A stretch of DNA of 63,661 nucleotides, filler included, from Hausera hauseri (taxonomy: Eukaryota): the NCBI GenBank assembly GCA_046269625.1. It is 10 parts of 10 records of this genome, joined end to end, with 100 filler letters (N's around TTAATTAATTAA, not from the genome) between each part and the next. Parts side by side here need not be neighbours in the genome. Positions count along the whole stretch, not along the records: positions 40,157 to 45,310 come from JBJURY010320050.1; positions 45,411 to 49,745 come from JBJURY010630330.1; positions 49,846 to 54,008 come from JBJURY010727213.1; positions 54,109 to 59,506 come from JBJURY010262288.1; positions 59,607 to 63,661 come from JBJURY010790202.1; 5 more parts are not named here. One strand, given 5' to 3'. Below the pieces are notes generated by a model. The model was not told where the DNA came from and did not search any database. It was given only the letters and a program-made list of their open reading frames with translations. Positions 11,451 to 63,661 of the stretch are shown in pieces (the stretch's first letter is position 1; the number at the start of each line of letters is the position of its first letter). Both the position numbers and the translations under genes were made by a program.

Positions 11451-11485
<35 letters not shown>

Positions 11486-35904: not shown

Positions 35905-36005
35905 NNNNNNNNNNNNNNNNNNNNNNNNNNNNNNNNNNNNNNNNNNNNTTAATTAATTAANNNNNNNNNNNNNNNNNNNNNNNNNNNNNNNNNNNNNNNN
36001 NNNNC

Positions 36006-39655: not shown

Positions 39656-40156
39656 CTGTTCAAGATAAAACACTGAATTTTGTTCTATTAAACCAAAATT
39701 TAGCTCAGTTTGTTATATAGTATATTTTATGTAGAGTAATTATGCTTTGTATTATATGTTACGTCGCTTTTTACTTCTTCAATTTTCCCCTAACATGCAG
39801 AAGAATTTTGAAATTTCATAAAATTTTCTTTTCATTTTTCAACCAATATTTTACTAAAGTCCAATTTCCAGTTTGTCATTCATGTTATGTCAAAGTACAA
39901 TGTATTCGTTTAATTATCAGTTACATCACTAATATTTCTTTCTATAAAAATATTAAATTTACACATGAATTATAACATAGTAGGTGGAAAATTTATCTTC
40001 GACCTCACCCTCGGGAGTGGGGTTATCGATAGATCGATACTGCACCTGTGCCAATTNNNNNNNNNNNNNNNNNNNNNNNNNNNNNNNNNNNNNNNNNNNN
40101 TTAATTAATTAANNNNNNNNNNNNNNNNNNNNNNNNNNNNNNNNNNNNNNNNNNNN

Positions 40157-40335
40157 GTAGCGTATCGTTCAAATCCAGGTATTCATTGTCCGATGCCATA
40201 ATGTTGAATTGAATGTCAATGTTATCGTCCGTTAGCCAAATCAATGGGGTAGATTTCCTCAAATGCCTCATTGTCAATAACAACTTTTGGCGCCGTTTTG
40301 TCAAATATACACAATTCAGATTTTGCAGATGCCAT
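40157..40335 (-). pseudogene. Major capsid protein N-terminus, copy A
   Basis: MASAKSELCIFDK...IQFNIMASDNEYLDLNDTL, same as copies B and C. Confidence 0.8.
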
Positions 40336-40359
40336 TTGCATATCTGTCAGTCAATCAAT

Positions 40360-40732
40360 CAATCAATTTAAAATCGTACGACGGCGACGACGACGTTTGT
40401 TTATAGCTGATGATCTCGATGATGCACTACGGCTTTTTCTCATCATCAAGCCACTGCCAGCGAATTGGTTTTGACCGATTCAACGACTCCCGGTGCATCA
40501 CTTTTTATTTCGGTCAAGGCTTGTTCCTTCAATGATGGTAAAATCGATTTGTTTTCATGTAGTACGTCCTGTGCCGTATTGCTGCCACGGCATCGATACG
40601 CTTCAACACCGGAAATGCTAAGCGTGCCAATGTACGCAACCATCCAGAGCCATTCTGTTTACAAACAAAATACGGTAGTTCACCGCCCTGCTGAGGTTTA
40701 CTGTAAATAGAAACGATTTCAGAATCAGTCAT
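40360..40732 (-). pseudogene. pVI/PW-like virion protein, copy A
   Basis: QQGG and QxGSG adenain-type cleavage-like motifs followed by amphipathic WLRTLARLAFPVLK and an Arg-rich C-terminus. Confidence 0.65.
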
Positions 40733-40824
40733 ATTGTTGTTGTTGTTGTTGTTGTTGTTGTCGTCGTCGTCGTTGTTGTTGTTGTGGTTGTCGTCGTCGT
40801 TGTTGTTGTTGTTGTTTTTGTTGT
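40733..40824. repeat. (GTT/GTC)n microsatellite in Maverick intergenic spacer
   Basis: Directly visible; only a few GTT units at the same site in copies B and C. Confidence 0.9.
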
Positions 40825-40825
40825 A

Positions 40826-41834
40826 CTCGACAGAAATGAAGCGTTAGACTGGTTGTAGTACGTACAGAAATTCGATAAGGTAGCCCGCGTCACATCGGAT
40901 ATTCACTTCAACATTGTTTACAGATGTAGATACCACAGGTAGGTACATTGGATTATCCAGCTTGACAGTGGCATTGTCGCCGACAGTATACTTGCCGCTT
41001 TTTGGATAAATTGCTCGAAGTAGTGGTACACGTACTCCACCGACCAAAATCGGTTCGGTGACGTTTACGTAAATGTACATTTGACTTAGTTCCCTTTTCA
41101 GTTTGGGTTTAAGTGTTGCAAGTGTTGGCACATTATATCTCAAACCGCTGTTTTTCAAAATCCAATACCATGGCCAAAGCTTTGTCCAATGAAATATCGA
41201 CTATATCCTTATTCAGTTCAAATTTAATGTACCCATTTGTATCTGACTTCAAAACTTTAAATATCGCCTTGTACTTTTTATTAGAAAAAAAACGTGTTGA
41301 CACAGCTGTGCTACAGATTCACAATAGACATAGTCTCCAATCGATACGTATGACGTTAGCACCCTTCCTGTTGTATAGGTAAATTTCACAGTTGTCTGGT
41401 AATATACGGGACTTAACCTTGGAGCAACTATATTTTCACTTTTAATGTGATTGCCTTTGTACTCTGTATTTGTAAATCCAAATTTCTGCGCCATCTCAAA
41501 TGACGGAAAGGTAACGGTAAATTCAAAATTTGCCATGAAAGCTAAGTTTTTCCCTAAAATATAAACACAAATTTTGCCGTGTGAACCGGAACCTGTTTCG
41601 ACCGTGCAAATGGCCGATTCTTCACCAACCGTTATTTTATTGTTAGTAAATGTCAGAGGGCAAGAATGTGTTTTGGTTTCAGTAACGTTCTTGTTGTACG
41701 TTATTTTCATACTACCTTTCAATGTTACCGGTGCGTAGGGAAAGTTAAATTCCGTCAGTGCAACCTCCCATTTTTAGATAAATCAAAAGAATTGTTCCTA
41801 TCTACAACGTATTTACTGACGAAATTGTTCGGAT
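40826..41834 (-). pseudogene. Penton/minor capsid-like paralog 2 (long), copy A, N-terminus deleted
   Basis: WEVALTEFNFPY...MYIYVNVTEPILVGGVRVPLLRAI...NPMYLPV...VEVNIR. Confidence 0.75.
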
Positions 41835-41852
41835 GGTAATGCAGTTTGTTTA

Positions 41853-42515
41853 TTATCCACGACGACGCAAATGTAACGTCAAATGTGGCGTTGACCCAAA
41901 CAGAAATTTAATTGGTTCCCAAAATCCATCAAGCATATACACGGAAGCACTGTTCACAATACTGTGAGGCAGTGATAAGTACATGGGTCTGAGCATATTA
42001 ACGCGAACAGTTTAATTCGATGTTTTGTACTTGTCAGAATCCAGTTCGATAGAAGCCACTAGTTGCTTTAGTTCTCCGCCAACGAGTATTGATTTGGTTG
42101 AGTCCGTTAAAATGTTGATTCTATGAAATGCTGCATAGAGTTTTGGTTTGTATTTGGCAACAATAGATTGTCCAACAGTGTTTTGGTAGAATTCGCGTTT
42201 TTAAAAGTCTGATTCCGAGAAATGTTGTCGCATATAACTGCGAAGTGTATATTGGTTATTGTGTGAGATTGTCCGCAAACGGCTTGAAATATGGTACGTT
42301 TCTTGTCGGATAAAGTGAATACCACTGTTCTGACGTATTTTCATTGATGAAAATGTAAATGTGAATTCCGCCAAAGCCACTTCCCAGACTCTGTTGAGTA
42401 AATCGACCGGTTCGTCCAAATGCATGGTAAACTGTTTAGCGGTATTGTCATTGTCGTCATGTTATAATAATGATCTGTTACTATCAAGTACCAAGTAAAT
42501 GCTGCTGCTGCTCAT
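41853..42515 (-). pseudogene. Penton/minor capsid-like paralog 1 (short), copy A
   Basis: IYLVLDSNRSL...NTAKQFTMHLDEPVDL...WEVALAEF at the start and SILVGG...RPMY...THLTLH at the end. Confidence 0.7.
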
Positions 42516-43588
42516 TAAATCTGTGATGCATAAATCCAACTCAGTGCAGTGTGTCCGTACCACTTGACGAGATATTGTTTATTCGAAACTTTGCCACATG
42601 AACGTAGAATTTCCTGAATACGATATACATCGGGTTTCTGGGGCAGTACTTGCAGTTCCTGTTCGTAGAATTTACCGCACGTTTCCTCGCCGTTTTCATC
42701 CTCTAAAACGTACATGACATGTGTTTGTTTTGTGTTGATTGCCGAAATGCGGAAAACCTCGTCGCTTCAGTTCTGATTGAAATTCTTAATGAATGGCGTC
42801 GTACTTATTTTCGAAATACGTACATAAGCACCGATTTTATATTTTGGGTGACGACGTCCTTCTTGTCGGTTGGTGTTTTTTTGATAAAGCCGCATGTCCA
42901 AATCATCGATTACGTCAACCGGTCGTAATCCATTGATACTGCGATGTGTCGAATGATTGTATGCATGAATAATATCCGGCAGTACACCTATCCAACATTT
43001 GTTGCCCTGCTTCGTAACGAATTTGTTTAGATGACTGCGCAATGTTTGATTAAATCGTTCAACGAGTGCAGCCTTGCATTGGGAAAACACCGAGTAGTGG
43101 TTTACGTCGAACCGTTTCAAGACCGCTGAAACGTGGGTGTTATAAAATTTCTTACCCAAATCCGTTTGTAAGTGCTTCGGTTGTTGTTGTTGTTGTATCA
43201 GCATCTGAACAGTGTCGGCAATCTCTTTACCAGATTAAGATTTCACAGCAATTGCACGTTCAAAACAACTAAACACATCAACACACGTCAGCACGTACCG
43301 ATACCCATTATTGATGCTAGTGTACGGAATCATTTCCATCAGATCCATTTGCCACACATTATTTACACCGGCGTCACGGTATACACGAGTTGGAAACCGC
43401 CATCTTATTGGTTTGTTTAGGCTGTATGCTAACTGTTCCCCGAGTCAACGTTGGGTCTGTTGCCAAGTTTGTTTGACAGTCTTTGCCAGTTTGTCGACGC
43501 GAGTATAGCCGATGGAATGACGCGGGTCGAACTACACATCGCCCATTGTTGTTGCCGCCAATGGTGTCCGTTTTGCTGCTGCTTGCAT
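42515..43588 (-). pseudogene. Maverick rve integrase with C-terminal chromodomain, copy A
   Basis: WQMDL, LQTDLGK, ALVERFNQTL, YNHSTHRSI, KFYEQELQ, YRIQEIL...YLVKWYG...SWI. Confidence 0.9.
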
Positions 43589-43702
43589 TACAACAATTAG
43601 AACAAAACGTAAATGAAAGATTTGGTAAACTGGGACAGAAAGATAAAAACCATATACCCATATCGCCGAATCATCATATACTTACCATCATTGTTTATAC
43701 TA

Positions 43703-44029
43703 TCATGTTGTTGCAGAACCGATGAGTCCACCCACTAATGACACGACAATCGGTAGAATTGTGCCAAGGAATCCACCGTCTTGCTGGTACATAATCTCTC
43801 GTTTCAGTCGTTTACTGCGGGTGTTGGCAAGGCCAATAAGTCGTTTTCGATACTTTAGTAAATTCCGCTTTCCACTACCAATGTCAACGTGACCCACGAC
43901 GATATTGTACAAAATTTCCATCAAATCGTCTACTACAAACTGTGGGAATGATCGTAGCATGTTTCGCTTATGTCTCGTAGGTGCCTTGAGCAAAGCAATA
44001 AAGTACGGCTGACTACGGTTGAATTGCAT
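43703..44029 (-). CDS. Maverick small protein with C-terminal QxGGFL amphipathic peptide (protein X-like), copy A
   Basis: Intact 108-aa ORF ending YQQDGGFLGTILPIVVSLVGGLIG, a motif common next to Maverick ATPases. Confidence 0.7.
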   Translation of the reverse strand: MQFNRSQPYFIALLKAPTRHKRNMLRSFPQFVVDDLMEILYNIVVGHVDIGSGKRNLLKYRKRLIGLANTRSKRLKREIMYQQDGGFLGTILPIVVSLVGGLIGSATT

Positions 44030-44079
44030 GCTTTTTTGTGGATGTATTGATGATGATGATGACGATGAGACTTAGTTGT

Positions 44080-44263
44080 TTATAACCGTTGCCACTTTGA
44101 AGGTAATTTGCGTCTAGGTACTGATGTTGTTGTTCGACAAAACACAGAATTGATTAATCGTTTGACTGTAGCGGTGGTTCGTTTTTATACACGTTTCTTG
44201 CAGCCGGACACCCGCTTTGTAGTAAGTTTACGTTTAACAATTTATTTTTCGGAAATTCTTCAT
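44080..44263 (-). pseudogene. Small Lys/Arg-rich protein (putative DNA-condensing core protein), copy A
   Basis: MKNFRK...KRK...KKRV...RRKLPSKWQRL, homologous to 61439-61607. Confidence 0.45.
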
Positions 44264-44281
44264 TTTGTTTTTTTATCATAA

Positions 44282-44979
44282 TCATGTCGTTGATTTTCGA
44301 ATTTGTTTATAGACACATACACCACCTTTCTGATTGATAATGTCTGTTCGTACACTCATGTCATCGGGACACTGTTGTGTAAAGTCCATGAACAAGTATC
44401 CATTTGGTTCGGTCGTACCATCAAGATATGCATCTATTAAGCAGGCTCGATTGTGAAAAAATGCTTGCCGTGAAACATAATCAATGATAGTTTAATCACG
44501 GGGATTTTTGAACAACACCAAATAGTGTACGTTTATATTTCTTGTTCTATGCTGCCCGCCCTGATGGAACATGTTTTACGTAATGAAAATAAACGTCACA
44601 CCGTGGTGCCGCGCAATCTTCGTGAACAGGTTGTTGAGGTCCGATTGTTTCGCGGCTTCTTGAAATAAATCGGCAATGAAAATAACGTCACCGTTGCGTA
44701 GTCTCTCTGTCCAGTTCTCATCAAACCCATCAATTACCGTTATTGATTTCAGTTTACAAAATTCCCGATTTGTCAAAACATACTCACCATCATCACCAAC
44801 ACCCTGATGCCAGTATATGTGATTGTACCGCGGTTTATGGAACATATCACGGTAGGTCTGCAATAGTTTACACACAAAGTGTGTTGTGCCGCTTCCACTG
44901 GGGCCTACAGTTTGGAAATTGGCATCATTCTGCTGCTTTATCTAATAATAATAGTAATAATGCAACTTTTCCTCACCAT
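44282..44979 (-). pseudogene. FtsK/A32-like packaging ATPase, copy A (35-nt intron after ATG)
   Basis: Walker A VGPSGSGTT (K lost), Walker B VIFIADL, LFTKIARHHGVTFIFIT, NVHYLVLFKNPRD, KPNGYLFMDF. Confidence 0.88.
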
Positions 44980-45044
44980 ATGATTTGTTTATAATCGTGT
45001 TACACGCATATGTAAATAGCTATAGTATAAACACTGTTTCCATA

Positions 45045-45310
45045 ATGTTAACTAATATCAACTATCGCGGACATGTTACCTAGTGTGTCATTAACACACT
45101 ACCTTTTAATCAATGGAAACCGAGGCAGTATGTCCTCCGGTGTCCACTGGATTTTACATGCATCGTATTTCAATCGGGAAAGTGTCGTATTACGGGTTGT
45201 CGCAAACCAATCACAGCTGACAACAGTAAATTATTACCATTCGTAATTGTCATTGACAAAATCAAATCAATAACGGTAACGACTCAGTTAGACTACCACC
45301 AAACAATCAA
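45045..45310 (+). pseudogene. TATA-binding-protein-like gene of the Maverick, copy A (N-terminal part)
   Basis: MLTNINYRGHVT*CVINTLPFNQWKPRQYVLRCPLDFTCIVFQSGKCRITGCRK...IKSITVT; IVFQSGKCRITG matches TBP repeat-1 LIFSSGKMVCTG. Confidence 0.75.
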
Positions 45311-46460
45311 NNNNNNNNNNNNNNNNNNNNNNNNNNNNNNNNNNNNNNNNNNNNTTAATTAATTAANNNNNNNNNNNNNNNNNNNNNNNNNNNNNNNNNN
45401 NNNNNNNNNNCATTGATATGGCTTTATACTAAAATTGAATCCATCAAGATTCTCTTTGTTATATTCTTTGTAACTGATGTTTGTTAAGATTATACTATCA
45501 GAAGTATCCTCACCTAACCACTTCCCAAAAAGTGCTCAGATCGAGCTGGAAACCAGTTTTTTCCACCTATCCCGCAATGCTGAGCATTTCATGTCTGATG
45601 GTCGGAAACCCTCCGCCAGAGACAGAAGAAAATCTGTAAATGGACTTTGAACCGAGACCAATCGTTCCAGCCGGACAAGGTGAACAAATGTTAACAGCGC
45701 CGCGAAGCTGAAAAATGTAACCCGGTGGTACAGGAGACAGAAAAAGAAAAACGGACAATGTGCAACTGACAACGCAACACATGTTGCTGGTATACCCAAA
45801 TTTTGTACAGACGTAAAATTGTTGTTAGCAAGTCGAATGGACACGGTTTCCTCATCGTCCGACCAAGGAAACATGGGGAAAACCGGTTGAGAAAATTTTC
45901 GTCTGGTAAAATTTCCCCACGTTCAAGTCTGCCGATGATAGAAATAGGTCTCAGACATTGCCCGTAAGTTGGGGGAAATTTCATAACCGCCTCACGATCG
46001 GATCAACGGATTCGGGTGAAAAATGCAATCGAAAAACACACTGTTAAAAGTCAAAATCATTATCGTTGTAAATGCATTGGTTTTTTGTAAAAATCGTGAA
46101 TTTTGTATTGTACGACGACGACGACGACGTTTAAAACCGAACGCACAAATTACCACGAGCTCATAATTAAGTACTACTACTACTCACAAGGAGGTGGTGG
46201 TGGTGACACCTAAGACCGTCTGCCTACAAACTAATGAGTACCACCAAATGTGTAACGAAGATATTGTGAAGCTGCATATTCGGACTCACCGCAATGAGTT
46301 GAGGCGGATAAAATTTTGGCCTGACCCAGTTTAGGACACCTGCATATTCGGATTCACCGCAATGAGTTGAGGCGGAAAAAATATAACAAGTTGTATATTT
46401 AATAATCACAATAACACTCTGCCTGTCTATTCAAAAAAGCGGAATACGTTTAGTCAATGT

Positions 46461-46868
46461 TCACAATAATGTATGTAATGTACGTTGCAATAGGTAGTAA
46501 TGTCCACGCAATAGGGTAAGTGGATGTTGATAATGAAGTCGATTATATTCAACACGATGATATGTTTGTCTTTCAATTTGAGAAACTAACGATGACGGTT
46601 AATAATACCCGACCGGATCGAATGCCTTGACGAAGGTCGGATGTACGTACACCACAATCCAATGTTTGCCCGGTAACAATGAACTGTGTGAATTAACGAT
46701 GAAATCTCAGCTACCATTTTGTCTTAATTCACGCGGCACACGGTCCATTGGAAACACACCGCGAAATTTTGCGCCCATGAGTAGTTTTCCATAGTGACCG
46801 TGTTCAGTTGAGCTAAACGTAAAACGTGATTTAATCATAATTGTAATAATGGTAATAAATTACTTCAT
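46461..46868 (-). pseudogene. Adenain-like cysteine protease, copy C (51-nt intron in codon 2)
   Basis: MN|STE...FRGVFPMD...IVNSHSSLLPGKHW...FDP...YQHPLTLL(R)G; catalytic His, Asp and Gln present, Cys codon mutated. Confidence 0.85.
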
Positions 46869-46896
46869 GGTACAAAGAGGAAGAAGAAGGTTTTAT

Positions 46897-48059
46897 TTAT
46901 ACAATGACTGTTCCGTTTTTCGTTATGTCCACCTCGGCATGAAATACACCGTAAAAGTACATCATGGTAGACTGCTCCAACGCTTTAGCAAAGTGATTCT
47001 CCAATCGTATGTTTGCCTGTTTGGGTAGATGAATCTGTTCAAAGACATAACCCGGAGCCAGGACAAAGATGAAGAATGGATATGTGGACCCGACCAAATC
47101 CATCGATATGTCATTGCTGACGTTTTTGCTCAGCAAACCCTTGTTGCGCCCTATGGATATGTGCAAACATAATTATTAAACTGAATGTCTTGTTAGTACG
47201 TCTCAACGAAATCCGCATTCCGACCCAAACTGATGTCATTTACATTGCTAGGCGTAAACGTTTCAGAATCGGTGGTATATCTGCCCGTTTGTTGAGCAGT
47301 CGTTTGAAATGTAACGAGCGCAAATTTCGGCAATCACATGTCGCCAAAGAGTGAGTCCTTGTAAACGTTGTCGAACCTTTTGGTATGGTGTAAAAGAAGG
47401 GTTCTGTGCGTTGTATTGGGTTTTGTGTTTTCAAGCCAAATCGATGTTCCATGAGCACAGATGGTTCTACCTTTACACGACGAACGTATAATCGTGCCTC
47501 GGTAATTTTCAGTATGGATTTGAGATTTGCAACTGCGGTTCTCAAACAAAAGACACTGTTGCTTCGTTTGAGCCGAATAATGGCTTTAACACCGGGTGGT
47601 AGGTATTTCGGCTAATCGAAAAAGTCAAAGTACAGCGGTCCACACATTGTAAGTGCTTTTGATTTTCCAACCCATGCCAGACGGTGTGCTGCCGTGGCGT
47701 CATATCCTATGGTTTTTGCCAAATGAGTCGTTTTCATGTCAGTACTGTAATTCAGAGCCGTTTAGAGTCAGTGAAAACTCTTGGAACAGTGTGAGGCAAA
47801 GGTAATTGGCCGGTGTAACAGTGTTTGTTTCAGCGAGAACCGTTGATGCATCCTTTTTAACAATGACTTTTACATACAGTAGCGTATCGTTCAAATCCAG
47901 GTATTCATTGTCCGATTCCATAACGTTGAATTGAATGTCAATGTTATCGTCCGTTGAAACCGAGTCAACGGGGTAGATTTCTTCAAATGCCGCATTGTCG
48001 ATAACAACTTGTGGTGCGGCTTTGTCGAATATGCACCATTTAAATTTTGCAGATGCCAT
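46897..48059 (-). pseudogene. Major capsid protein (double jelly-roll, PY-type), copy C
   Basis: YLDLNDTLLYVKV, GPLYFDFF...YLPPGVK, LKITEARLYVRRVKV, NIRLENHFAKAL...YGVF, typical of Maverick MCP. Confidence 0.85.
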
Positions 48060-48069
48060 TTGTCTATCA

Positions 48070-48419
48070 ATCAATCGATCGAAAATTGTAAGACGACGAC
48101 GTTTGTTTATAATTGAAAAGCTAGCTGATCTACCACGTTTTCTCAAGCCACTACCAGCGAATCGTTTTTTGACTAATTCAACGACTCCCTGTGCAGCGCT
48201 TTTTATTTCGGACAAGGCATCTTCCTTCAGTGATGGTAAAATCGATTTGTTTTCATATAGTACATCCTGTGCTGTTTTACTACCACGGCTCCAATAGGCT
48301 TCAACACCGGAAATGCTAGACGTGCCAATGTACGCAACCGTCTAGAGCCATACTGTTTACGGTAGTTTACCGCCCTGCTGCAGTTTACTGTAAATGGATA
48401 CGATTTCAGAATCAATCAT
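48070..48419 (-). pseudogene. pVI/PW-like virion protein, copy C
   Basis: KQYGSRRLRTLARLAFPVLK...FAGSGLRKR...INKRRR. Confidence 0.65.
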
Positions 48420-48423
48420 GTTG

Positions 48424-49466
48424 TTAGATTAGACGGAAATGAAAAGTTAGACTGGTTGAGGTACCGTACGGAAAGTCAATAAAGTAGCTTGCGTCATATC
48501 TGATATTGACTTCAACATTGTTTATAGATGTAGTTGCCACAGGTAGGTACATTAAATTATCTAGCTTGACAGTGACATTTTCGCCAGCAGTGTACTTGCT
48601 CCTTTCCGGATAAATTGCACGGAGTAGCGGTACACGTACACCACCAACCAAAAACGGTTCGGTGACGTTCACATTTGACTTAGCCCAGTTTTCAGTTTGT
48701 GTTTAAGTGTTGCAACATGTTCTGTCTTCGTATTCGATGTCTCAAACCGCTGTATTTCAAAACCCAATACCATGGCCAAAGCCTTGTCCAATGAAATGTC
48801 GATATCCTTAGCCAGTTCAAGTTTAATGTACTCACTTGCATCTGACTCGAAAACTTTAAATATCATCTTGCACTTTTGATTTGAAGAAAAGTGTTAACAA
48901 AGATGTGCTACAGATTCGCAATAGACATTGTCTCCTATCGATACGTATGATGTTGACACGATTTCTGCTGTATAGGTAAATTTCACCGTTGTCTGGTAAT
49001 GTAGGGGCTTAATCTTGGAGCAACTGCATATTCACTTTTAATATTTTTATCTTTGTACTCTGTATTTTTGAATCCAAATTTCTGCGCCATCAGAGGACTG
49101 AAAGGTGACAGTAAATTCAAAACCTGCCATAAAATGTAAGTTTTGAACTAAAAACATGGATTTTGCCGTGTAAACCGTAATTTGCTTCGGTCGTGCAAAT
49201 GCCCGATTCTCCAACTGTTATTTTATTGTTAGTAAGTGTCAGAGGACATGAATCAATTTCGGTTTCAGTAACAGTCTTGTCGTACGTTATTTGTATACTA
49301 TCTTTCAATGTCACCGGTGCGTAGGGAAAGTAAAATTCCGTCAGTGCAACCACCCATTTCCAGATAAATCCAAAGGATTGTTCCAATCTACAACGTATTC
49401 ACTGGCTGAATTGTTCGGACGAGTCGTCAGACAACTGCTGCTCGGCAAAACCATGTAAATGCTCAT
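48424..49466 (-). pseudogene. Penton/minor capsid-like paralog 2, copy C
   Basis: MSIYMVLPSSSC...NNSASEY...PLDLS...LVGGVRVPLLRAI...MYLPV...YGTSTSLTFHFR. Confidence 0.78.
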
Positions 49467-49745
49467 GATCTCGATGATATCGATAATCTCGATGATCAAG
49501 ATGATCAAGATGATCAAGATGATCAAGATGATCAAGATGATCAAGATGATCGAGATGATCAAGATGATCAAGATGATCAAGATGATCAAGATGATCTCGA
49601 TGATCTCGATGATCTCGATGATCTCGATGATCTCGATGATCTCGATGATTATGATGATCTCGATGATGATGATGATCTCGATGATGATGATGATCTCGAT
49701 GATGATGATGATCTCGATGATGATGATGATCTCGATGATGATGAT
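49465..49745. repeat. Compound minisatellite (GATGATCAA)n / (GATGATCTC)n / 15-mer
   Basis: Directly visible; runs into the contig end. Confidence 0.95.
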
Positions 49746-49845
49746 NNNNNNNNNNNNNNNNNNNNNNNNNNNNNNNNNNNNNNNNNNNNTTAATTAATTA
49801 ANNNNNNNNNNNNNNNNNNNNNNNNNNNNNNNNNNNNNNNNNNNN

Positions 49846-50420
49846 ATCACTTTTCCAATTACTCCTTCAACAAATGGCATCACTGGTGCTACCATATCTG
49901 GATTCATTATTACCAAAGCCATACTGTTTCGTATTATTTCATAATTTAATTTACGCTCATTCATATTTTTTCTCTGCATAAACTTCTAATCTCTTTCCTT
50001 ACATAGTTGATTAAGAAATCAATCTTATTATCAAAATATTGCGTTAATTTTATATCCTTTTTATTTATCTTTGTCGTTGCTCCAGGTATTTCTTTTGATG
50101 ATAAGAAAATACCTTTATAATTAGTTCTAAATATTTCTTCGTTACATTTGTTTATCGTTCCGGTGACTTTAAATCGCATCATTTCCTCTGGATTTGCCGA
50201 ATACACGATTGTAGCTACTTCCGTCATCTTAACTTCCTTCGTTCTTTTTTTATACGTTGGTGTATCCTTCTCAACCATGCTACCCACTGTCTTATTGAAT
50301 CTTCCTTCTTTCAACAGCGTTAATTGACACTTGTTTATAGGTGCTTCCCATGTCATTTTTGATTCTCCGGTATTGCATTCACCACTGTCATATTCGCATT
50401 CACTTGTTAGATGTAGGGGT
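49846..50420 (-). pseudogene. Env-like glycoprotein remnant resembling chuvirus G / gB-like class III fusogens of LTR elements
   Basis: CEYDSGECNTGESKMTWEAPINKCQLTLL...C...IFRTNYKGIF...DIKLTQYFDNKIDFL...NPDMVA shows the Cys/Trp and helix pattern of this family, recognised by eye. Confidence 0.55.
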
Positions 50421-53400: not shown

Positions 53401-53681
53401 GTTGTCAGATGATTTAGGAAATTGATTTCCTGTTTTCGTCTCGTTTTTGCAATCAATTCTCTTATTGTCGAATTAATAATTCGTATCGTCAGACGTTAAT
53501 TTCCTGTTTTCGGAATTCGTCAGACGTTAATTTCCTATTTGCGGAATGTTTCGTGATTGCCACAAATTAAGAATTTTATTTAATTAAAAGAATTTCTGAA
53601 TTTTATTCAATTAAAAGAATTTCCCATTTATTAACATTCAACCATTCCGCACCGTCAGCCGTTGCCCACAATTCATATACA

Positions 53682-54008
53682 TGTAGCAGTGAAGGAGTGG
53701 ATACCCATCAGAGGGTTTCATATTTCAAAAGAAAGTAAAAGCAGAAGATTTATTCAAGTCGTATTCAAATGTTGTACCAATTAGAATCACATTCAAATGT
53801 TGTTCAATGTACAAACTGTAAATATACAAGATGTTAATAGTGTTAATTCAGGAGGATAATGTAATTCTGAAGTTATAAATTAGAACTTCTCCAACGTTCG
53901 TTATTTAGTCACTCTCAACATTTCTCCCCCCTTTGAAAAGGATTCGGTCCTCCGGATCACACTGAGTACTGACATCGACGAAACTGAGATTTCTGGGTTT
54001 AATCGTCA
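53682..54008 (-). mobile_element. 3' end of an LTR retrotransposon: PPT (53921-53934) + ca. 239-bp LTR (53920-53682)
   Basis: Minus strand reads GAGGAC...AAAGGGGGGAGAAA then TGTTGAGA...AATAAA...CTACA. Confidence 0.65.
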
Positions 54009-55220
54009 NNNNNNNNNNNNNNNNNNNNNNNNNNNNNNNNNNNNNNNNNNNNTTAATTAATTAANNNNNNNNNNNNNNNNNNNNNNNNNNNNNNNNNNNN
54101 NNNNNNNNTTCCCCTTACTCCCATAAGTTGGGGAAAATTTTATATTATAACCGCCTTACGATAAGATCAATGGATCGGGGTGAAAATGTAACCGAACGAA
54201 CAAACGAACGAAAGAAAGCGCAAAGGTAAGTCAAAGTCGTTATAGTATGTAAAAGTGTCAACTCTACCGCACTTCGAAAAAGTACCCAGATCGACTCGGG
54301 ATCAGGTTTTTCCCACCTATCTCGCAATTCTGAGCATTTCATTTTTGCGGTCGGAGACCCCCAGGGGAAGAAGAAGGTCGGGCAATGGACTTCGAACCGA
54401 GACCAATCGGTCGAGCAGAACAAGGCGAGAAAAAATTAACAGCGGCGCAAGGCCGAAAAATGTAACCCGGCGGAACAGGAGGCTGAAGAAGAAAACGGGC
54501 AATGTGCCAGTGCAAAGGCAACACATGTAGTTGGTATACGGAAATTTTGTACAAAGTTAAAATTAATGTTGGCAAGTCTAATGGACACGGTTTCGTCGTC
54601 GTCCGACCAAGGGAGCATGGGGAAAACCGGTTGAGAAAATTTCCGTAGGGTAAAATTTCCCCTGTTCAAGTCTGCCGGTGATGGAAATGGGTCCAGTACA
54701 TTACCCATAAGTTTGGAAAAATTTTACATTATAACCGCCTCACGATCAGATCAATGGATCCGAGTGGAAAACGCACATTTCAGTAAAAACAAAAAAAAAC
54801 AACGTAAAAATCGTCATTTTCGTTTTTTACATTTTTTGTGTTTTTTGTAAAAATCTGTCGCGGACTTTATTTTGTACTACGACGACGGCGAATAAAACCG
54901 AACGGCTAATAGTAATAAATTACAACCGCATTATGAGCATGACAGTATAACTGAGTACTACTCATAAGGAGAACGATTATCATCAAAACTGCAATGCTAG
55001 TAGTAGTAATAGTAGCAAAAGTGACACCTGGAACCGTCTACCACAAATGTAACAAAGGTGATGAAACGATATAACAGTACATGGTGGTAACAACAACAAC
55101 AACAACAACAGCAATATAGCACATAGTGTATTTCAAAATATCAAAAACTCTTTGTCCATCCTCACAAAACAGTCTGACCGTCTGTCTGTCTGTCTGTCCA
55201 ATCAAAAAAGCGGAATACGT

Positions 55221-55629
55221 TCACAATAATGTATGTAATGTAAGCCATAATAGGCAGTAATATCCAAACAATATGGTAAGTGGATGTTGATAATAAAGTC
55301 GAATATACTCAACACAATGATAATGTGATTGTCTTTCAGTTTGAGAAATTAACGATGACGGGTAATAAAACACGAGTGAATCGAATACCTTGACGGCGGT
55401 CGAATGTGCATACACTGAAATCCAATGTTTGCTCGGTAACGATGAACTGTGTGTATTGACGATCAAACCTCCGCCACCATTTTGTCGTAAGTCACGCGAC
55501 ACACGGTCCAGTGGAAACACCGCACAATTTCACACCCAAGCGCAGTTTTCTATAGTGACTGAGTTCAGTTGAGCTAAACGGAAAATATGATTTAATCATA
55601 ATAGTAATAATGGTAATAAATTACTTCAT
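55221..55629 (-). pseudogene. Adenain-like cysteine protease, copy B (51-nt intron 55574-55624)
   Basis: MN|STEL...FPLD...LIVNTHSSSLPSKHW...VFDS...YQHPLTIL(F)GYYCL. Confidence 0.85.
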
Positions 55630-55660
55630 GGTACAAAGACGAGGAAGAAGAAGGTTTTAA

Positions 55661-56882
55661 TTATACAATGACGGTTCCTTTTTTCGTTATTTTAACCTCG
55701 GCATCAAATACACCGTAAATGTACTTCATCGTAGACTGTTCCAACGCTTTAGCAAAGTGAACATCCAGTCGCAGGTTTCCTTGCTGAGGTAGTTGAGCCT
55801 GCTCAATGTAGTAGTCCGGAGCCAGGACAAATGTGAAGAATTGGATAGGTGGACTTGAACAAATCCATCGATATGCCATTGTTGACATTTTTGTTGAGCA
55901 AACCCATGTTGCGCACGATAAATTGCATATATGTGCAAACGTAATAGCCGGTCTCGAAATCCTTCTTGTATGTCTCAACTAAATCTGCATTCAGACGCAA
56001 ACTGATGTAATTCATATTGCTATGGGTAAACGTTTCGAATCGGTGGTATAACTACCCGTTTATTGAACAGTCGTTTGAAGTGTAACGAGCACAAATTTCG
56101 GAAATCGTATGTCGCCAAACAGTGCATCTTTTTAAAACGTTGTCGAACCTTTGGGTATGGTATAAAACCATCGGGTAACAGGCATTTTGCGTTTCCAAGC
56201 CCAATCGATGTCCCATGAGCACGGACGGTTCTACTTTTACACGACGTACGTATAATCGTTTTTAGGAAATTTTCACTATGGGTTTAAGCCATAAAACGTC
56301 GGTTTTCATACAAAAGACATTGTCTCTTTGTTTGAGCCGAATCATAGATTTAACACCGTATATTAGGTATTTCGGCTGATCAAAAAGTCAAAGTACAGAG
56401 GTCCACACATTGTAAGTGCTTTTGATTCTGCCACCCATGCCTGACGGTTTGCCGCTGTGGCATCGTATCCGATGGTTTTCGTCAAATGAGTCGTTTTCGT
56501 CTGCACTGTAATTCAAAGCCGTTTTAATGAGTGTTTTGATACTGTATAGACTAGTGTTGCCTTCGATTTTGACGTTCTTTAGGGTCAGTGAAGCCTCCTG
56601 GAATAGTGTGAGGAAAAGATAACTGGCCTGTGTGACTGTGTCACAGTCTGTTGCAGCCAGAACTGTTGATGCATCCTTTTTAACAATGACGTTTGCATGG
56701 AGTAGTGTATCGTTCAAATTGAGATATTCATTGTCCGATGCCATAATGTTAAATTGAATGTCAATGTTATCCTCCGTTGAAGCCAAATCAACAGGATAGA
56801 TTTCTTCAGTTGCTGCATTGTCAACAACAACTTGTGGAGCGGCTTTGTCAAATATACACAATTCAAATTTTTCAGATGCCAT
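55661..56882 (-). pseudogene. Major capsid protein, copy B
   Basis: About 1.2 kb from MASEKFELCIFDK to GNLRLDVHFAKAL...YGVFDAEVKI; frameshifted. Confidence 0.85.
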
Positions 56883-56889
56883 TTGTCTG

Positions 56890-57249
56890 TCAATCGAAAA
56901 TCGTACGACAACGACATTTGTTTATTGTTGATGAGCTCGATGATGCTCCACGATGTTTTTTCAGGCCACTGCCAGCGAATTATTTTTTGACTTATTCAAC
57001 GATTCCCAGTGCACCGCTTTTTATTTCTGACAAGGCGTGTTCTTTGAATGATGGTAAAATCGATTTGTTTTCATATAGTACATCCTTTTCTGTTTTTGCT
57101 GCCACGGCTGCAACACGCTTCAACACCGAAAATGCTAAACGTGCCAATGTACGCAACCATTCAAAGCCATACTGTTTACCAACGAAATACGGCAGTTCCC
57201 CACCCTTCTGGGGTTTACTGTAAATAGAAACGATTTCAAAATCAATCAT
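56890..57249 (-). pseudogene. pVI/PW-like virion protein, copy B
   Basis: PQKGGELPYFVGKQYGFEWLRTLARLAF. Confidence 0.65.
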
Positions 57250-57255
57250 GTTGTT

Positions 57256-58307
57256 GCTGGATTCGAAGAGAATGAAGAGTTAGACAGGTTGTAATACCCT
57301 ACGAAAATTCAATAAGGTAGTCCGCGTCACATCGGATATTCACTTCAACATTGTTTATAGATGTAGCTACCACAGGTAGGTACATTGGATTATCGATCTT
57401 GACAGTGACATTGTCACTGGCAGCATACTTGCTGCTTTCCGAATAAATTGCTCGGAGTAGCGGTACACGTACTCCACCAACCAAAATCGATTCGGTGACG
57501 TTTACGTAAATGTACATTTGACTTAGTGCCGTTTTCAGTTTGGGTTTGAGTGTAGCAACATATCGATGCCTCAAACCGCTATTTTTCAAAACCCAATGCC
57601 ATAACCAAAGCTTTGTCCAATGAAATGTCGACAATATTCTTTTCCAGTTCAAATTTAATGTACCCATTTGCATCAGACTCGAAAACTTTAAATATCGCAT
57701 TGTACTTTTGATTTGAGAAGTGTTGACAGAGCTGTGCTACAGATTCGCAATAGACATGGTCTCCAATCGATACGTATGACGCTGACACCCTTTCTGTAGT
57801 ATAGGAAAATTTCACAGTTGTTTGGTTATATAAAGGACTAAATCCTGGACCAACTACATATTCACTTTTAATATGTTGACCTTTGTACTCTGTATTTTTA
57901 AATCCAAATTTCTGTGCCATCTCAGAGGACTCAAAGGTAACAGTAAATTCGAAATCTGCCATAAAATGTAAGTTTGGATCTATAATAAAAACACCGATCT
58001 TGCCGAATATGCCGTAATTTGCTTTGGTCGTGCAAATGACCGATTCTTCAACTGTTATTTTATTGCTAGTAAGTGTCAGAGGACAAGAATATGTTTTAGT
58101 TTCAGTAACAGTCTTGCTGTGCGTTATTTTCATACTACCTTTCAATACCACCGGTGCGTAGGGAAAGTTAAATTCCGTCAGTCCAACTTCCCATTTTCCA
58201 GCAGATAAATCCAAAGGATTGTTCCAATCTACAACGTATTCACTGGCGGAATTGTTCGGACGAGTCGTCGAACAACTGTTGCTCGGCAATACCATGTAAA
58301 TACTCAT
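57256..58307 (-). pseudogene. Penton/minor capsid-like paralog 2, copy B
   Basis: ORFs 57579-58307 and 57299-57700 joined by a frameshift. Confidence 0.78.
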
Positions 58308-58309
58308 GA

Positions 58310-58343
<34 letters not shown>

Positions 58344-58376
58344 AATGATGATGATGATGATGACGCAGTTTGTTTA

Positions 58377-59894
58377 TTATCGACGTTGACGACGTTGAAA
58401 ATGTAACGTCAAATGTGTCGTTGACCCAAACAGAAATTTAACGGATTCCCAAAATTCATCAAGCATATACACGGAAATACTGTGTACAGTATTGTGAGAC
58501 AATGGTACGTACATGGGTCTGAACATAATAACGCGAACAGTTTCACCCGATGATGATGTTTGTACGTGTCAGAATCCAGTTCGATAGACGCCAGCAGTTG
58601 TTTACGTTCTCCACCAACGAGTACGGATTCGGTTAAGTCCGTTAAACTGTTGATTCTATGAAATGCTCCATAGAGTTGCGGTTTGTATTTGGCAACAAGA
58701 TTGTCCAACAATGGTTTGATAGAATTGACGTTTTGAAAACCCAGATTTCGAACCAATAATTCATTAAAGGCAAAATATGTAACATTGTCATGTAGTGTAA
58801 GAGAAATATGACCATCTGCGTTTATTTCACGTCTTTACAGCTAATTTAGCTGTTTTCTTGACGTATTCACACAATTCCAGTTCCGTTTCCATTAATAAAT
58901 CGTGTGGTATAATATAAGCGGAAGACTGATTCTGACTTTACTATAATATCGGATTCCGCATTGGATGAAAGGTCCAATTTATGATTACAGTCTATGTACA
59001 CGAATATTTTCACGACTGGAAGTATATCATTGTAAGTACAAGCTATTTGTTATTTAATTGCTGATCAATTAAGATCACGTTTAATAACATAAATAAAAAC
59101 AAATTATTAACCTTCAGACTTCTTAGTTTTTTATAGATTCATTTAACATAAGAACAAATTTTATTTGTAATAATAATCTCTATATCATTAATTATATGTT
59201 CAACTTACAAATTTGATTGCCACTTGTTTATGGATGATTTATGATTGTGTCAGCATCAGACTTTCATTAAACAATTATTCAAATAACCAGCCAAAATAAA
59301 TTACAGTAACCCAATATAAATATATTGAATAACTTTCCTGCCTTCGGCGTTTCCGAGTATTTCAGTTAAAGATATCTATCCATCATACTGAGTCACTTTG
59401 AACAAAAGCTTTCTTAGGTGATTGACGTATCATACTGTTGTTTCAGATTTTCAATATTTAAAATTAAAGGTATAATTTCTGGATAATTAATAAATAGGAA
59501 TTGTCANNNNNNNNNNNNNNNNNNNNNNNNNNNNNNNNNNNNNNNNNNNNTTAATTAATTAANNNNNNNNNNNNNNNNNNNNNNNNNNNNNNNNNNNNNN
59601 NNNNNNCATTTTCTCGCGAATAATTTGAAGAGTATATAGGTTATTGTGTCGGATTGTCCGCAAACCACTTGAAATAAGGTTTGTTTCTTTAAGGGTAAAG
59701 TAAATACCATTGTTCTGACGTATTGCCATTGGTGAAAATGTAAATGTAAATTCAGTCAAAGTCATTTCACAGGCTCCGTGGTGTAAATCGACCGGTTGAT
59801 CCAAGTGCACGGTAAATTGTTTAGCGGTATTGTCGTCATTGTCGTCGTGTTATGATAATGATCCGTTACTGTCAAGTACCAAATAAATGCTCAT
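58377..59894 (-). pseudogene. Penton/minor capsid-like paralog 1, copy B, split by an unrelated insertion (58757-59606)
   Basis: The N-terminal half (59607-59894) and C-terminal half (58377-58756) correspond to adjacent parts of 41853-42515. Confidence 0.7.
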
Positions 59895-60967
59895 CACTCA
59901 ATCTGCGATGCAAAAATCCAACTCGGTGTAGTATATCCGTGCCACTTGACGAGATATTGTTTATTCGAATCTTTGCCACGTGAACGTAGAATTTCCTGAA
60001 TACGATACACATCATGTTTTTCCGGTAGTACCTGCAGTTCCTGTTCGTAAAATTTGCCACGTATTTCGTCACCGTTTTCATCCTCTAAAACGTACATAAC
60101 CGGACTTTGTTTTGTGTTGATTGCTGAAATTCAGAAAACCTCATCGCTCCAGTTCTGACTGAAATTCTTAATGAATGGCGTTGTACTCAGCTTTGAAATA
60201 CGTATATACTCTTCGATTTTATATTTTGGGCGACGTTTAATTGTCTGTCGTCCTCGTTGGGTTCGGTTGTTTTGATAGAGCCACATGTCTAAATCATCGA
60301 CTACGTCAACCGGTCGTAATCCATTAATACCACGATGTGTCGAATGATTGTATGTATGAATAATATCCGGCAATACATCTACCCAGCGTTTGTTGCCTTG
60401 CTTCGTAAAAAATTTGTTTAGGCGACCGAGCAATGTTCGATTAAATCGTTCAACGAGTGCCGCCTTGTATTGGGAAAACACCGAGTAGTGGTTTACGCCG
60501 AACCGTTTCAAGACCGCTGCAACGTGGGCGTTGTAGAATTCCTTACCCAAATCCGTTTGTAAATGCTTCGGTTGTTGTTGTTGCATCAGTGTCTGGACAG
60601 CGTCGGCAATCTTTTTACCGGATTTATATTTCACGACAATTGCACGTACAGAACGACTAAACACATCAAAGCATGTCAGCACGTACCGATACCCTTCGTT
60701 GTTGTTGGCGTATAGAATCATTTCCATCAGATCCATTTGCCATACGTTATTTACGCCGGCAGCACGGTATTCACGAGTTGGAAACCGCCTTCTTATCGGT
60801 TTGTTTAGGCTGTATGGTAACTGTATCCCGAGCCAACGTTTGGTCTGTTTCCAAGTCTGTTTGACAGTTTTTGCCAGATTGTCGACGCCAGTATACCAGA
60901 CGGGATGATGTGGGTCGAAACACACGTCGCCCATCGTTGTCGTCGATGGTGCCGGTTTTGCTTGCAT
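59894..60967 (-). pseudogene. Maverick rve integrase with chromodomain, copy B
   Basis: DDE triad WQMDL / LQTDLGKEF / LVERFNRTL intact; stop at 60131-60133 before the chromodomain. Confidence 0.92.
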
Positions 60968-61078
60968 TACAACAATTAAAAAGAAACGTAAATAAAAGAT
61001 TAGGTAAACTGGGTCAAAATGATAAAAACCATGCACTTATATCGCCGAATCATCATACACTTACCTTTATTGTTTATA

Positions 61079-61402
61079 CTATGCTGAAGAACCAATGAGT
61101 CCACCCAGTAATAACGCGACAATCGGCAGAATTGCATCATGGAACCATCCGTCTTGCTGGTACATGACCTCTTGTTTTAGTCATTTACTACGGGCATTAA
61201 AAAGGCCAATGTGTCGTTTTCGATACTTTAGTAAATTTCGCCTTCCACTACCAATATCAACGTAACCCACAACGATTTTGTATAAAATTACCATCAAATC
61301 GTCTACTATAAACTGTGGGAATGATCGCAGCATGTTTTGCTTATGTCTCGAAGGTGCATTGAGCAAAGCAATAAAGTACTTCTAACTAGGTTTGAATCGC
61401 AT
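61079..61402 (-). pseudogene. Protein X-like, copy B
   Basis: Homologous to 43703-44029, with stops. Confidence 0.7.
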
Positions 61403-61438
61403 TTTTTGGATGTATTGATGTTGATGAGACGTAGTTGT

Positions 61439-61607
61439 TTATAACCGTTGACACTGTGACGGTAATTTGCGTCTAGTTCTGATTGTTGTTCGAAGCATAG
61501 AATTGATTAGTCGGTTAACTGTAGCAGTTCGTTTTGATACACGTTTCTTGCCGGACACCCGCTTGGTAGGTTTACGTTTAACAATTGTTTTTCGGAAATT
61601 CTTCACT
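61439..61607 (-). CDS. Small Lys/Arg-rich protein, copy B
   Basis: KNFRKTIVKRKPTKRVSGKKRVSKR...RTRRKLPSQCQRL. Confidence 0.45.
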
Positions 61608-61619
61608 TTATCACAATTA

Positions 61620-62312
61620 TATCGTCGTCGATTTTCGAATTTGTTTATAGACACACACCACCCTTCTGATTAAAAATGTTTGTTCGCACACGCATGTCAT
61701 TGGGACACTTTTGTTTAAAGTCAATAAACAGATACTCATGCGGTTTGTTCGTAGCTTCGTGATGTGAATCTATCATTTAGGCTCGGTTGTGAGGAAATGC
61801 TTGTCGTGCAACACCATCTATAATAGTCTGATCGAAGGGATTTTTGAGTAACACCAAATAGTGTACGTTTAGATTTCTTGTTCGATTCTGTCCGCCTTGA
61901 TGGAACATGTTTTTCGTAATAAAAATAACCGTCACACCACGGTGTCGTGCAATCTTCGTGAACATGTTGTTGAAGTCAGTTTGTTTCGTTGCTTCCTGAA
62001 ATAAATCGTTGATGACAATAATGTCACCGTTGCGTAATCTTTCAGACCAGTTCTCATCAAACCCATCTATTACCGTTATCAATTTAAGTTTACAAAATTT
62101 CCGATATGTCAAACGGGACTCATCATTATCACCAAAACCTTGATGCCAGTATATGTGATTGTACCGCGGTGAATGGAACATGTCACGGTATTTCTGCAAT
62201 AGTTTACACACACAGTGTGTTTTGCCACTTCCAATGGGGTCTACAATCTGGAAAATTGCATCATTCTGCAGCTTTATCTAATAATAATAATTATACAACC
62301 TTCCCTCACCAC
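61620..62312 (-). pseudogene. Packaging ATPase, copy B (32-nt intron 62278-62309)
   Basis: GSGKT Walker A, IIVINDL Walker B, FTKIARHRG, RTRNLNVHYLVLLKNP. Confidence 0.88.
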
Positions 62313-62318
62313 ATGATT

Positions 62319-62379
62319 TGTTTATAATTGTTTTACACACGCGTATATAAATAGCTATATTATAAACACTGTTTCCATA
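62319..62379. promoter_or_regulatory. Divergent promoter between ATPase (-) and TBP-like gene (+); homolog at 44986-45044
   Basis: Outward-facing TATAAACA motifs (62319-62326 minus, 62361-62368 plus) around a central TATATAAATA. Confidence 0.6.
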
Positions 62380-62796
62380 ATGATAGCTAATATCAGTTAT
62401 CACGGACATGTTGCCATGTGGTGTGACATTAACATACTACCTTTTAATCCGTGAAAGCCGAGGCAGTATGTACTCAAGTGTCCACCGGATTTTACATGCA
62501 TTGTATTTCAGTCGGGCAAGTGTCGTATTATGAACTGTCGCAAACCAATCACAGCTGACGACAGTGACCTACTGCAATTCGGAATTGTCATTGACCAAAT
62601 CCAATGAATAACCGTAACGACTCAGTTAGACTACCGCCAAACAATCAATCCGTACAAATAAGCAATGGCCACTACTGAATGTACGTATGAACCCGAACTG
62701 TTTCCTGCACTAAGACTTATATCGTTTTGCCCACTTTGTGTCAATGTGTTTAGCAGTGGAAAAATTGTTGTACTCGGTATTCGAACGGATTACTAA
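62380..62796 (+). pseudogene. TATA-binding-protein-like gene of the Maverick, copy B (both TBP repeats)
   Basis: Single frame with 3 internal stops: ...CIVFQSGKCRIM...TYEPELFPALRLISFCPLCVNVFSSGKIVVLG, vs TBP [33 protein letters not shown]. Confidence 0.85.
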
Positions 62797-62902
62797 TCAA
62801 ATTAAAAACCACATAAATGTTTTAGTGAATCAAAATAATGTACATTGTACAACAACAACAAACTATAAATACCATTCCCATGCTCATTCAGACATTATTT
62901 CC

Positions 62903-63585: not shown

Positions 63586-63661
63586 ATTTTGTTGTTTTAC
63601 CGTTCTTCTTTTTTTTCTTCTTTCATTAACCCAATTAACTAGTATAAATATACATTTAATT

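Follow-up and report, generated by a model that had tools for sequence, protein, structure and literature searches.

What reads the short AT-rich word that stands before the viral genes of a decayed mobile element, and which of these genes answer to it? The question is raised by a 63,661-nt stretch of Hausera hauseri DNA (GCA_046269625.1; hereafter the window), which holds two to three related, decayed Maverick/Polinton copies of 78-85% mutual identity, located at 40157-49745 and 54109-63600 with linker-filled gaps between. The copies comprise an rve integrase, an A32-like ATPase, an adenain protease and capsid genes, together with a gene resembling that of TBP, the factor that binds the TATA box. 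A first-pass annotation had described the motif (T/A)ATAAACA before almost every viral gene and proposed an element-specific promoter or initiator; all 21 quoted 8-mers were verified in the window sequence, coordinates and strands included, and reduce to 11 positions in the related copies. Comparison with relatives indicates that the word, better written YATAAACR, very probably serves the capsid module as a core promoter element at -30. The whole account proposed here, in which a mini-TBP of ~150 residues encoded by the element would read YATAAACR on the capsid-module genes within a two-step switch, is given a probability of roughly two in three.

Consensus and spacing of the word

Relatives were gathered by scanning metagenome contigs with a TBP alignment, which confirmed 128 loci, the best 80 being kept; clustering the relatives' loci at 80% nucleotide identity left 54 groups, each represented in the counts by a single contig. 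The longer TBP-bearing loci are intact Mavericks sharing the gene order of the window, and PolB lies on the same contig in the relatives L013, L024, L057 and L061. Simple repeats aside, the most over-represented 7-mer in the relatives' loci is ATAAACA, with 201 occurrences against a background of 85.5. The frequency check gives the same answer in copy B of the window (54109-63600, minus strand coding), where the word occurs eight times against a shuffle mean of 1.29 and maximum of 6, none of 300 dinucleotide shuffles reaching eight. In the whole window, WATAAACA matches number 41 versus 23.0 +/- 4.6 in 100 shuffles, a count inflated by the paralogous copies and by a degenerate simple repeat at 6.6-25 kb. 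This TTG/TTC-type repeat (~18 kb, 6650-25115) contains many minus-strand ATAAACA matches unrelated to the element.

The word is positioned as well as frequent. Following 250 ATAAACR sites in the 54 dereplicated relatives, nine open reading frame (ORF) starts fall at offsets of 10-24 nt and 67 at 25-34 nt, the finer bins containing 2 (15-19), 4 (20-24), 43 (25-29) and 24 (30-34). The distance to the ATG is thus fixed, mostly 25-31 nt, and the word keeps one orientation, with no reverse-strand match in any gene class. A start at 24-35 nt follows 60/194 ATAAACA and 15/56 ATAAACG sites, whereas all other single-base variants (20 in number) stay at 0-6.7%, with the one exception of ATAAACT (7/58); GTAAACA (1/52), ATAAAAA (3/202) and ATAAATA (9/169) are barely positioned. 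The 76 positioned sites display T (68%) or C (25%), then ATAAAC, then A (80%) or G (20%), followed by A or T, so that the first base is T over C rather than the T or A first described, and the consensus becomes YATAAACR. With its strict C at position 7, this word does not match the canonical TATAWAWR, and it is likely a variant TATA box.

Gene classes marked by the word

The integrase, ATPase, protease and TBP-like genes are Pfam-confirmed on the window or its relatives; the labels X, penton, pVI-like and major capsid protein (MCP) derive from tblastn with intact relatives, the capsid-gene labels denoting homology to the relatives' clusters with no Pfam match. Within 22-100 nt of the start, the word precedes every ATPase (21/21), X (16/16), pVI (6/6), MCP (10/10) and leucine-rich-repeat (5/5) gene, along with penton (10/14), integrase (8/13), protease (3/7), phospholipase A2-like (7/9) and cluster C2 (14/17) genes, and is rare before C10 (0/4), C3 (1/10), KilA (0/5) and the zinc-finger gene (1/10). 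The description "almost every viral gene" is too broad: in relatives the word marks one gene class.

Counting the TBP-like gene in the motif class, as was formerly done, is not supported. The word is found at 22-50 nt before this gene in 0/46 relatives, with 3/46 loose matches within 100 nt; 35/46 of these starts carry an initiator-like word, and in 18/46 an initiator follows a canonical TATA by ~30-34 nt; CCAAT is often present too (by eye). The TATA-initiator pair is absent from the 21 ATPase, 16 X, 6 pVI, 10 MCP and 14 penton starts, and the window gene has its own canonical TATAAATA at 62346. A reverse-strand WWAAACA word before the TBP-like gene was considered and dropped, TTAAACA and AAAAACA not being positioned.

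At sites that fall inside the preceding gene, codon choice indicates that it is retained at the DNA level through synonymous codons, in agreement with the selection first suggested from peptide contexts. Ile-Asn is spelled ATA AAC R in 35/56 cases within the last 45 residues of core genes versus 12/182 elsewhere, a comparison in which homologous sites are partly non-independent, so that p-values overstate. At the integrase Lys-Gln site the preceding residue varies (D, H, Y, N), yet the NAT codon is kept.

As an aid to annotation, the word pointed to a missed small ORF and to a spliced protease start. The small ORF begins with Met-Gly and overlaps the integrase 5' end; it is this ORF, and not the integrase ATG, that starts 24-30 nt after the motif. 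Its Met-Gly start may be part of a myristoylation signal.

Probable transcription start and predicted introns

The start site was approximated, in place of transcript ends, by the depletion of out-of-frame (decoy) ATGs relative to shuffles. At offsets 0-23 decoys number 50 against 37.5 in shuffles (138 segments) and show no avoidance; between offset 25 and the true start they are depleted, at 9 against 22.6 (87 segments, P=0.0005). Because decoys are tolerated to +23 and depleted beyond +25, transcription likely starts ~31-33 nt from the Y of the word, that is, at TATA-box spacing, which matches the TATA-to-initiator spacing in the TBP-like gene's own promoter. The distances of 0-8 nt that had seemed too short for a -30 box run to decoy ATGs. 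In the window, measurable offsets to homology-defined starts are 25-102 nt at all sites save the TBP-like one, which alone among the claimed sites is too close, at 11 nt from the ATG (Table 1).

In L013 and L024 a predicted, conserved GT-AG intron stands directly after the protease start, 25-26 nt from the word, and the window has a like layout (by eye); this points to nuclear RNA polymerase II (Pol II) and the spliceosome. Predicted GT-AG introns of 37-51 nt were seen by eye at these two protease starts, at 46813-46863 of the window and between clusters C10 and C3 in L013, L018 and L010. Splice donors were considered at the ATG-GT junctions that closely follow the ATPase and integrase sites, and were rejected, the relatives having plain starts 25-45 nt downstream.

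The TBP-like protein

Read with X at three stops, the window protein matches PF00352 at E=2.1e-10 (40.7 bits against a cut-off of 22.9); its homologues number 50 among 52 candidates of 74-237 residues, the best being 73% identical. The AlphaFold2 model of a natural homologue, P0005 (57 sequences, pLDDT 96.5), comprises a complete C-lobe and an N-lobe reduced to strands, helices being absent. The missing helices are what we take to be the surfaces for TBP-associated factors (TAFs), Mot1 and Brf1. In a fold search with this model, all 44 listed PDB matches at E<=0.001 are TBPs, the top ones at TMq ~0.7. By its sequence match and modelled saddle fold, the gene is genuinely TBP-like.

DNA-contact positions were taken from the yeast TBP list in Table 1 of PMC12529657 and mapped through alignments and spacing from conserved Phe residues. 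Equivalents of F116, F190 and F207 are kept in 57/57 sequences and P191 in 55/57, and the stirrup glutamates equivalent to E186 and E188, predicted to bind TFIIB, in 57/57; an equivalent of F99 was not found among the 57, so the usual four Phe and two full lobes of a TBP are incomplete. The base-facing surface is exchanged: V71 to N (50/57), V122 to R (57/57), T124 to M (57/57), N159 to S (51/57) and L205 to N (57/57), with further swaps of I194 to R (52/57) and V203 to C (49/57). According to PMC1636458, changes at L205, V203 and I194 alter specificity in TBPm3, and the N-proximal TBP lobe contacts the 3' half of the box, where the fixed C of YATAAACR falls.

Co-occurrence of the word and the TBP-like gene

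The positioned word precedes 86/356 ORFs in TBP-bearing loci, which were selected via the TBP-like gene, versus 2/473 in 37 loci without a TBP match. The two sets are similar in GC content (0.37, 0.35), and canonical TATA words show no such difference between them. L148 and L151, picked by integrase alone, carry both the TBP-like gene and the word. The controls exclude L098, L099, L101-L121 and L160-L163 (weak or bacterial integrase matches) and the six duplicate contigs L122, L123, L129, L134, L140 and L147; GTDB contigs L149, L150 and L152-L159, of undefined TBP status, were counted apart. The Maverick contigs L148-L153 sit in bacterial GTDB metagenome-assembled genomes and are likely mis-binned. 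Scans of viral contigs with the window integrase, the window TBP-like protein and the MCP and ATPase alignments gave no confirmed locus; the TBP alignment gave one giant-virus-like locus, L001, excluded from all counts.

The first-pass proposal of an element-specific promoter word is supported. In a quick integrase tree (46 rows), the TBP-bearing rows, the window included, share a single branch with an SH-like approximate likelihood-ratio (SH-aLRT) support of 89. Together with the residue changes, the co-occurrence also makes the TBP-like protein the likely reader, as that annotation had guessed.

Elements outside the pattern are of several kinds. L131, the best control, is complete and TBP-less (12,321 nt, its ends identical) and shares the gene module; it shows mixed TATA-like words, lacks a uniform one, and also has a PC4-like ORF (PF02229 E=0.0034, below cut-off). 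L081 is a Maverick-like contig with MCP and protease that encodes a full-size, cellular-looking TBP of 180 aa with both lobes (L081:3043-3585), possibly a separate capture or an earlier stage. In the TBP-less Maverick group L083-L091, other shared upstream words (TTGAC-type, TCAGT) were noticed by eye, which suggests lineage-specific promoter codes.

A proposed two-step switch and its alternatives

In the proposed mechanism, host TFIID would first read the canonical TATA/initiator promoters of the TBP-like gene and its neighbours. The mini-TBP would then bind YATAAACR in the minor groove, as suggested by a C-lobe that keeps both intercalating Phe residues, the Pro and the acidic stirrup while the base-facing residues are swapped; it is predicted to prefer YATAAACR over TATAAAAG and would recruit host TFIIB and Pol II. 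With Pol II starting ~31 nt from the Y, the ATPase, X, penton, pVI, MCP and protease genes and some accessory genes would yield short mRNAs, some of them spliced and most without an initiator. The labels "early" and "late" follow gene identity and not a time course. With somewhat less assurance than the switch itself, we lean towards a broader picture in which a large branch of animal Mavericks would run a self-contained early-to-late cascade through one stripped TBP of 150 residues; leaning equally, we picture this protein as having shed its host-regulator surfaces, kept its TFIIB hook and rewired its saddle to YATAAACR.

Host TBP/TFIID, or a paralogue encoded by the host, might instead treat the same -30 element as a weak TATA box, with the TBP-like protein serving as decoy, repressor of host transcription or replication aid. 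We consider this explanation unlikely. The positional evidence fits it equally, the co-occurrence is confined to one branch, and TBP-less L131 carries TATAAACG, TATAAACT and other TATA-like words; moreover, host TBP can bind TATAAAC and make partial use of it: PDB entry 1qn3 is, by its title, wild-type TBP on a C(-25) variant, and in plant protoplasts TATAAACG retained 27% activity (PMC10005294, Table 4). The strict C at position 7 and the 25% C at position 1, however, are both poor for host TBP (PMC10005294, tables 4 and 5). Canonical words, used elsewhere by the same elements, are unused at these starts, and the DNA face of the TBP-like protein bears invariant substitutions at specificity positions. 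Reading in trans by a co-infecting large DNA virus has a model in mavirus, which shares the late promoter (TCTA) of Cafeteria roenbergensis virus (CroV), and in virophages generally, whose virion genes are preceded by a fixed word; TBP-like factors are encoded by many large viruses. The predicted spliceosomal-type introns in the protease and C10-C3 genes nevertheless argue against a cytoplasmic helper, the element has its own candidate reader, and this reading is very unlikely.

That transcription begins inside the word, as in a late initiator of the poxvirus TAAAT or baculovirus TAAG type, was the first-pass proposal and now appears highly improbable: starts gather 25-31 nt after the word, and decoy ATGs, common at offsets 0-23, become depleted only past 25. 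An ORF does start within 4 nt at 10/250 sites, and some clade-B X genes have a second copy of the word 0-3 nt before the ATG, yet those genes also have one at 29-37 nt. A host forkhead site is barely credible. The forkhead consensus RYAAAYA, which accepts GTAAACA and works in either orientation, includes ATAAACA; but GTAAACA and ATAAATA are hardly positioned, the non-forkhead ATAAACG is (15/56), and the word is strand-specific and at fixed distance. Next to no credence attaches to a polyadenylation signal of the upstream gene or to chance in AT-rich duplicated DNA, even though many sites lie near the upstream stop codon, AATAAA is the reading at five window sites and the 21 sites amount to 11 positions. 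The word stands at divergent promoters (the window ATPase; cluster C3 of L011), A precedes it in 5% of the 76 positioned sites, terminal 3' ends carry it in 2/28 cases against 13 with AATAAA, and copy B exceeds expectation (8 vs 1.29); the double role as poly(A) signal once suggested for AATAAA variants is not supported.

Against the mini-TBP as reader of YATAAACR stand, besides 1qn3 and the residual activity of TATAAACG, several further points. Because the TBP-bearing rows share one moderately supported branch, the co-occurrence of word and gene amounts to about one evolutionary event, as far as the tree goes, and most TBP-negative control loci are distant or partial. In L131, TATAAACG precedes X by 71 nt and TATAAACT precedes the ATPase by 32 nt. 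Four of the 22 TBP-bearing loci above 4 kb lack a positioned word (L007 0/9, L073 0/10, L074 0/9, L081 0/4), L007 and L074 having none of the recognised capsid-module genes and L073 a different gene order. The integrase, protease and zinc-finger genes often do without the word, the Tyr-Lys-Gln codon test alone is not significant (18/21 vs 4/7, p=0.14), and the likely start position would leave modal genes an unexplained leader of only 1-8 nt. Finally, a copy of the word in the window's own TBP-like promoter is an exception to the pattern of the relatives; self-repression through it is possible but unsupported. Because the window copies are broken, the switch is probably a fossil here.

Relation to known systems

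The closest parallel is found in beta- and gammaherpesviruses, in which the TBP mimics KSHV ORF24, BcRF1 and UL87 read TATTWAA ~30 bp before late starts (PMC6541308). Common to both systems are a virus-encoded TBP-fold protein, a variant TATA word ~30 bp before structural-gene starts and minimal promoters. According to PMC12529657, the herpesvirus mimic has a more polar saddle, and ORF24, a multi-domain protein of 752 residues, acts as part of a six-protein complex, makes direct contact with Pol II and is devoid of the glutamates that contact TFIIB; the V122 and L205 positions are polar and T124 is changed in both ORF24 and the Maverick protein. In contrast, the Maverick protein has ~150 residues (a fifth of ORF24), keeps the TFIIB glutamates, lacks N-lobe helices and an F99 equivalent, and pairs with YATAAACR, sharing neither the size, the domains nor the TATT word of the ORF24 type; no partner protein was identified, none having been specifically searched for. 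Because the structural match to BcRF1 is weak (E=4.7e-3), the two mimics are likely convergent.

Compared to cellular TBP (PF00352), the Maverick protein preserves the fold, the C-lobe YEPELFP stirrup, three of the four Phe residues and the -30 geometry, but displays a shortened N-lobe, modelled without helices, and invariant DNA-face swaps; its word differs from the Pol II TATA box by C at position 7 and often at position 1. The late initiators of poxviruses (TAAAT) and baculoviruses (TAAG) are read by a viral polymerase, and their transcripts begin inside the word. These initiators and the mavirus/CroV promoter share with YATAAACR the layout of a short fixed word before virion genes, whereas the Maverick start would lie ~23 nt further downstream, and the loci annotated showed no polymerase gene. 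The elements otherwise resemble Mavericks/Polintons (adintoviruses) in rve integrase, A32 ATPase, adenain protease, major and minor capsid genes and, in relatives, pPolB. Introns are described as lacking in vertebrate Mavericks; the TBP-bearing lineage differs in its predicted short introns.

Literature searches, with term searches in the body text of Maverick, polinton-like virus (PLV) and adintovirus papers, found neither the word nor its pairing with a TBP reported; published gene maps may already label the TBP-like gene. As searched, PMC8502044, PMC8097293, PMC11161782 and PMC10748475 mention no promoter word for these elements, "TBP" occurring once, as a Fig. 5 legend label (PMC8502044). 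In coral polintoviruses, capsid genes form their own expression cluster, according to 10.1101/2023.10.06.561300; by analogy this fits two gene classes, but those elements are not shown to carry a TBP-like gene.

With an 8-base site and one small candidate protein, the timing of Maverick capsid genes and their need for a helper virus become testable. If the broader picture is true, the mini-TBP would be the smallest natural altered-specificity TBP, and evidence that these elements assemble virions in the nucleus with no helper virus. If binding holds, the herpesvirus-type TBP-mimic strategy would have arisen independently here, and the protein would be a natural TBP of changed specificity, useful for understanding how TBP recognises DNA and perhaps as a Pol II switch of an orthogonal kind.

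Features of the window

Table 1. Coordinates of the promoter words, genes and joins in the window. Offsets in nt run from the word to the homology-defined start (tblastn).
Feature	Position	Strand	Remarks
TBP-like gene, copy B	62380..62793	+	In-frame stops, read with X; Pfam PF00352, tblastn
TBP-like gene, copy A, 5' part	45045..45310	+	One stop; assembly gap cuts gene; tblastn
Host-type promoter of TBP-like gene	62346..62379	+	Canonical TATAAATA at 62346, initiator-like CA 31 nt on
TATAAACA in TBP-like promoter, between TATAAATA and CA	62361-62368	+	11 nt before ATG; unlike relatives
Paralogue of TATAAACA, TBP-like promoter, copy A	45026..45033	+	
YATAAACR before ATPase, copy B	62319..62326	-	41 nt; promoter divergent, with no gene ending upstream; both copies have lost the ATPase start codon
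YATAAACR before ATPase, copy A	44986..44993	-	44 nt
A32-like packaging ATPase, copy B, broken	61660..62277	-	Pfam, tblastn; copy A 44291-44941
Motif in ATPase C-terminus (VYKQ), before small basic protein	61642..61649	-	Paralogue 44304-44311
Motif before gene X	61436..61443	-	33 nt; paralogue 44077-44084, 47 nt
Motif before small Met-Gly ORF overlapping integrase start	61071..61078	-	Paralogue 43692-43699 (copy A), 30 nt
Small Met-Gly ORF overlapping integrase 5' end	43374-43661		L024:4536-4736; conserved in 5 loci
rve integrase, copy B, premature stop	59915..60967	-	PF00665 E=8e-12; copy A 42533-43546
AATAAACA in integrase C-terminus (NKQY), before penton 1	59958..59965	-	63 nt; paralogue 42576-42583, 60 nt
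AATAAACA at penton 1 end, before penton 2	58371..58378	-	ATC repeat lengthens leader; paralogue 41847-41854
Motif in penton 2 C-terminus (SINN), before pVI-like	57352..57359	-	102 nt; paralogue 48519-48526, 99 nt
Third copy of pre-pVI site, reads TGTAAACA	40915-40922		
Motif in pVI-like C-terminus, before MCP	56919..56926	-	36 nt; paralogues 48104-48111 (44 nt), 40398-40405 (62 nt)
MCP, copy B, broken	55664..56882	-	tblastn; other copies 46900-48059, 40158-40335
TATAAATA over MCP stop codon	46894..46901	-	Likely late-motif variant, 25 nt before protease ATG (46868)
Predicted short GT-AG intron directly after protease start	46813..46863	-	By eye; layout as in intact L013, L024
Adenain-like protease, copy A, broken	46587..46868	-	Pfam, tblastn; copy B ~55305-55629
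Canonical TATAAATA before acidic ORF at 62903 (last + ORF)	62864..62871	+	31 nt; initiator-like CATT ~31 nt on; likely host-type class, like relatives' cluster C10
Window joins	6151-6250, 25610-25709, 31069-31168, 35905-36004, 40057-40156, 45311-45410, 49746-49845, 54009-54108, 59507-59606		

The nine joins each consist of 44 N, 12 bases and 44 N, the 12 bases being the linker TTAATTAATTAA in the five joins at 40-60 kb; short contigs are strung together, and the adjacency of the Maverick copies may be artificial. ATC-type repeat expansions occupy the penton 2 leader in two copies (49460-49745 and 58306-58363), and penton 1 of copy B contains AT-rich, non-viral-looking sequence at ~58.8-59.5 kb. 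Between the Maverick copies, an ORF at 49961-50356 weakly matches a viral fusion glycoprotein (PF24664 E=0.0045, below cut-off). Elsewhere, the window contains a reverse transcriptase fragment at 32501-33337 (RVT_1 E=2e-4, below cut-off), a coiled-coil ORF at 35212-35724 and, at 36276-37871, an intact ORF of 531 aa without a significant Pfam match.

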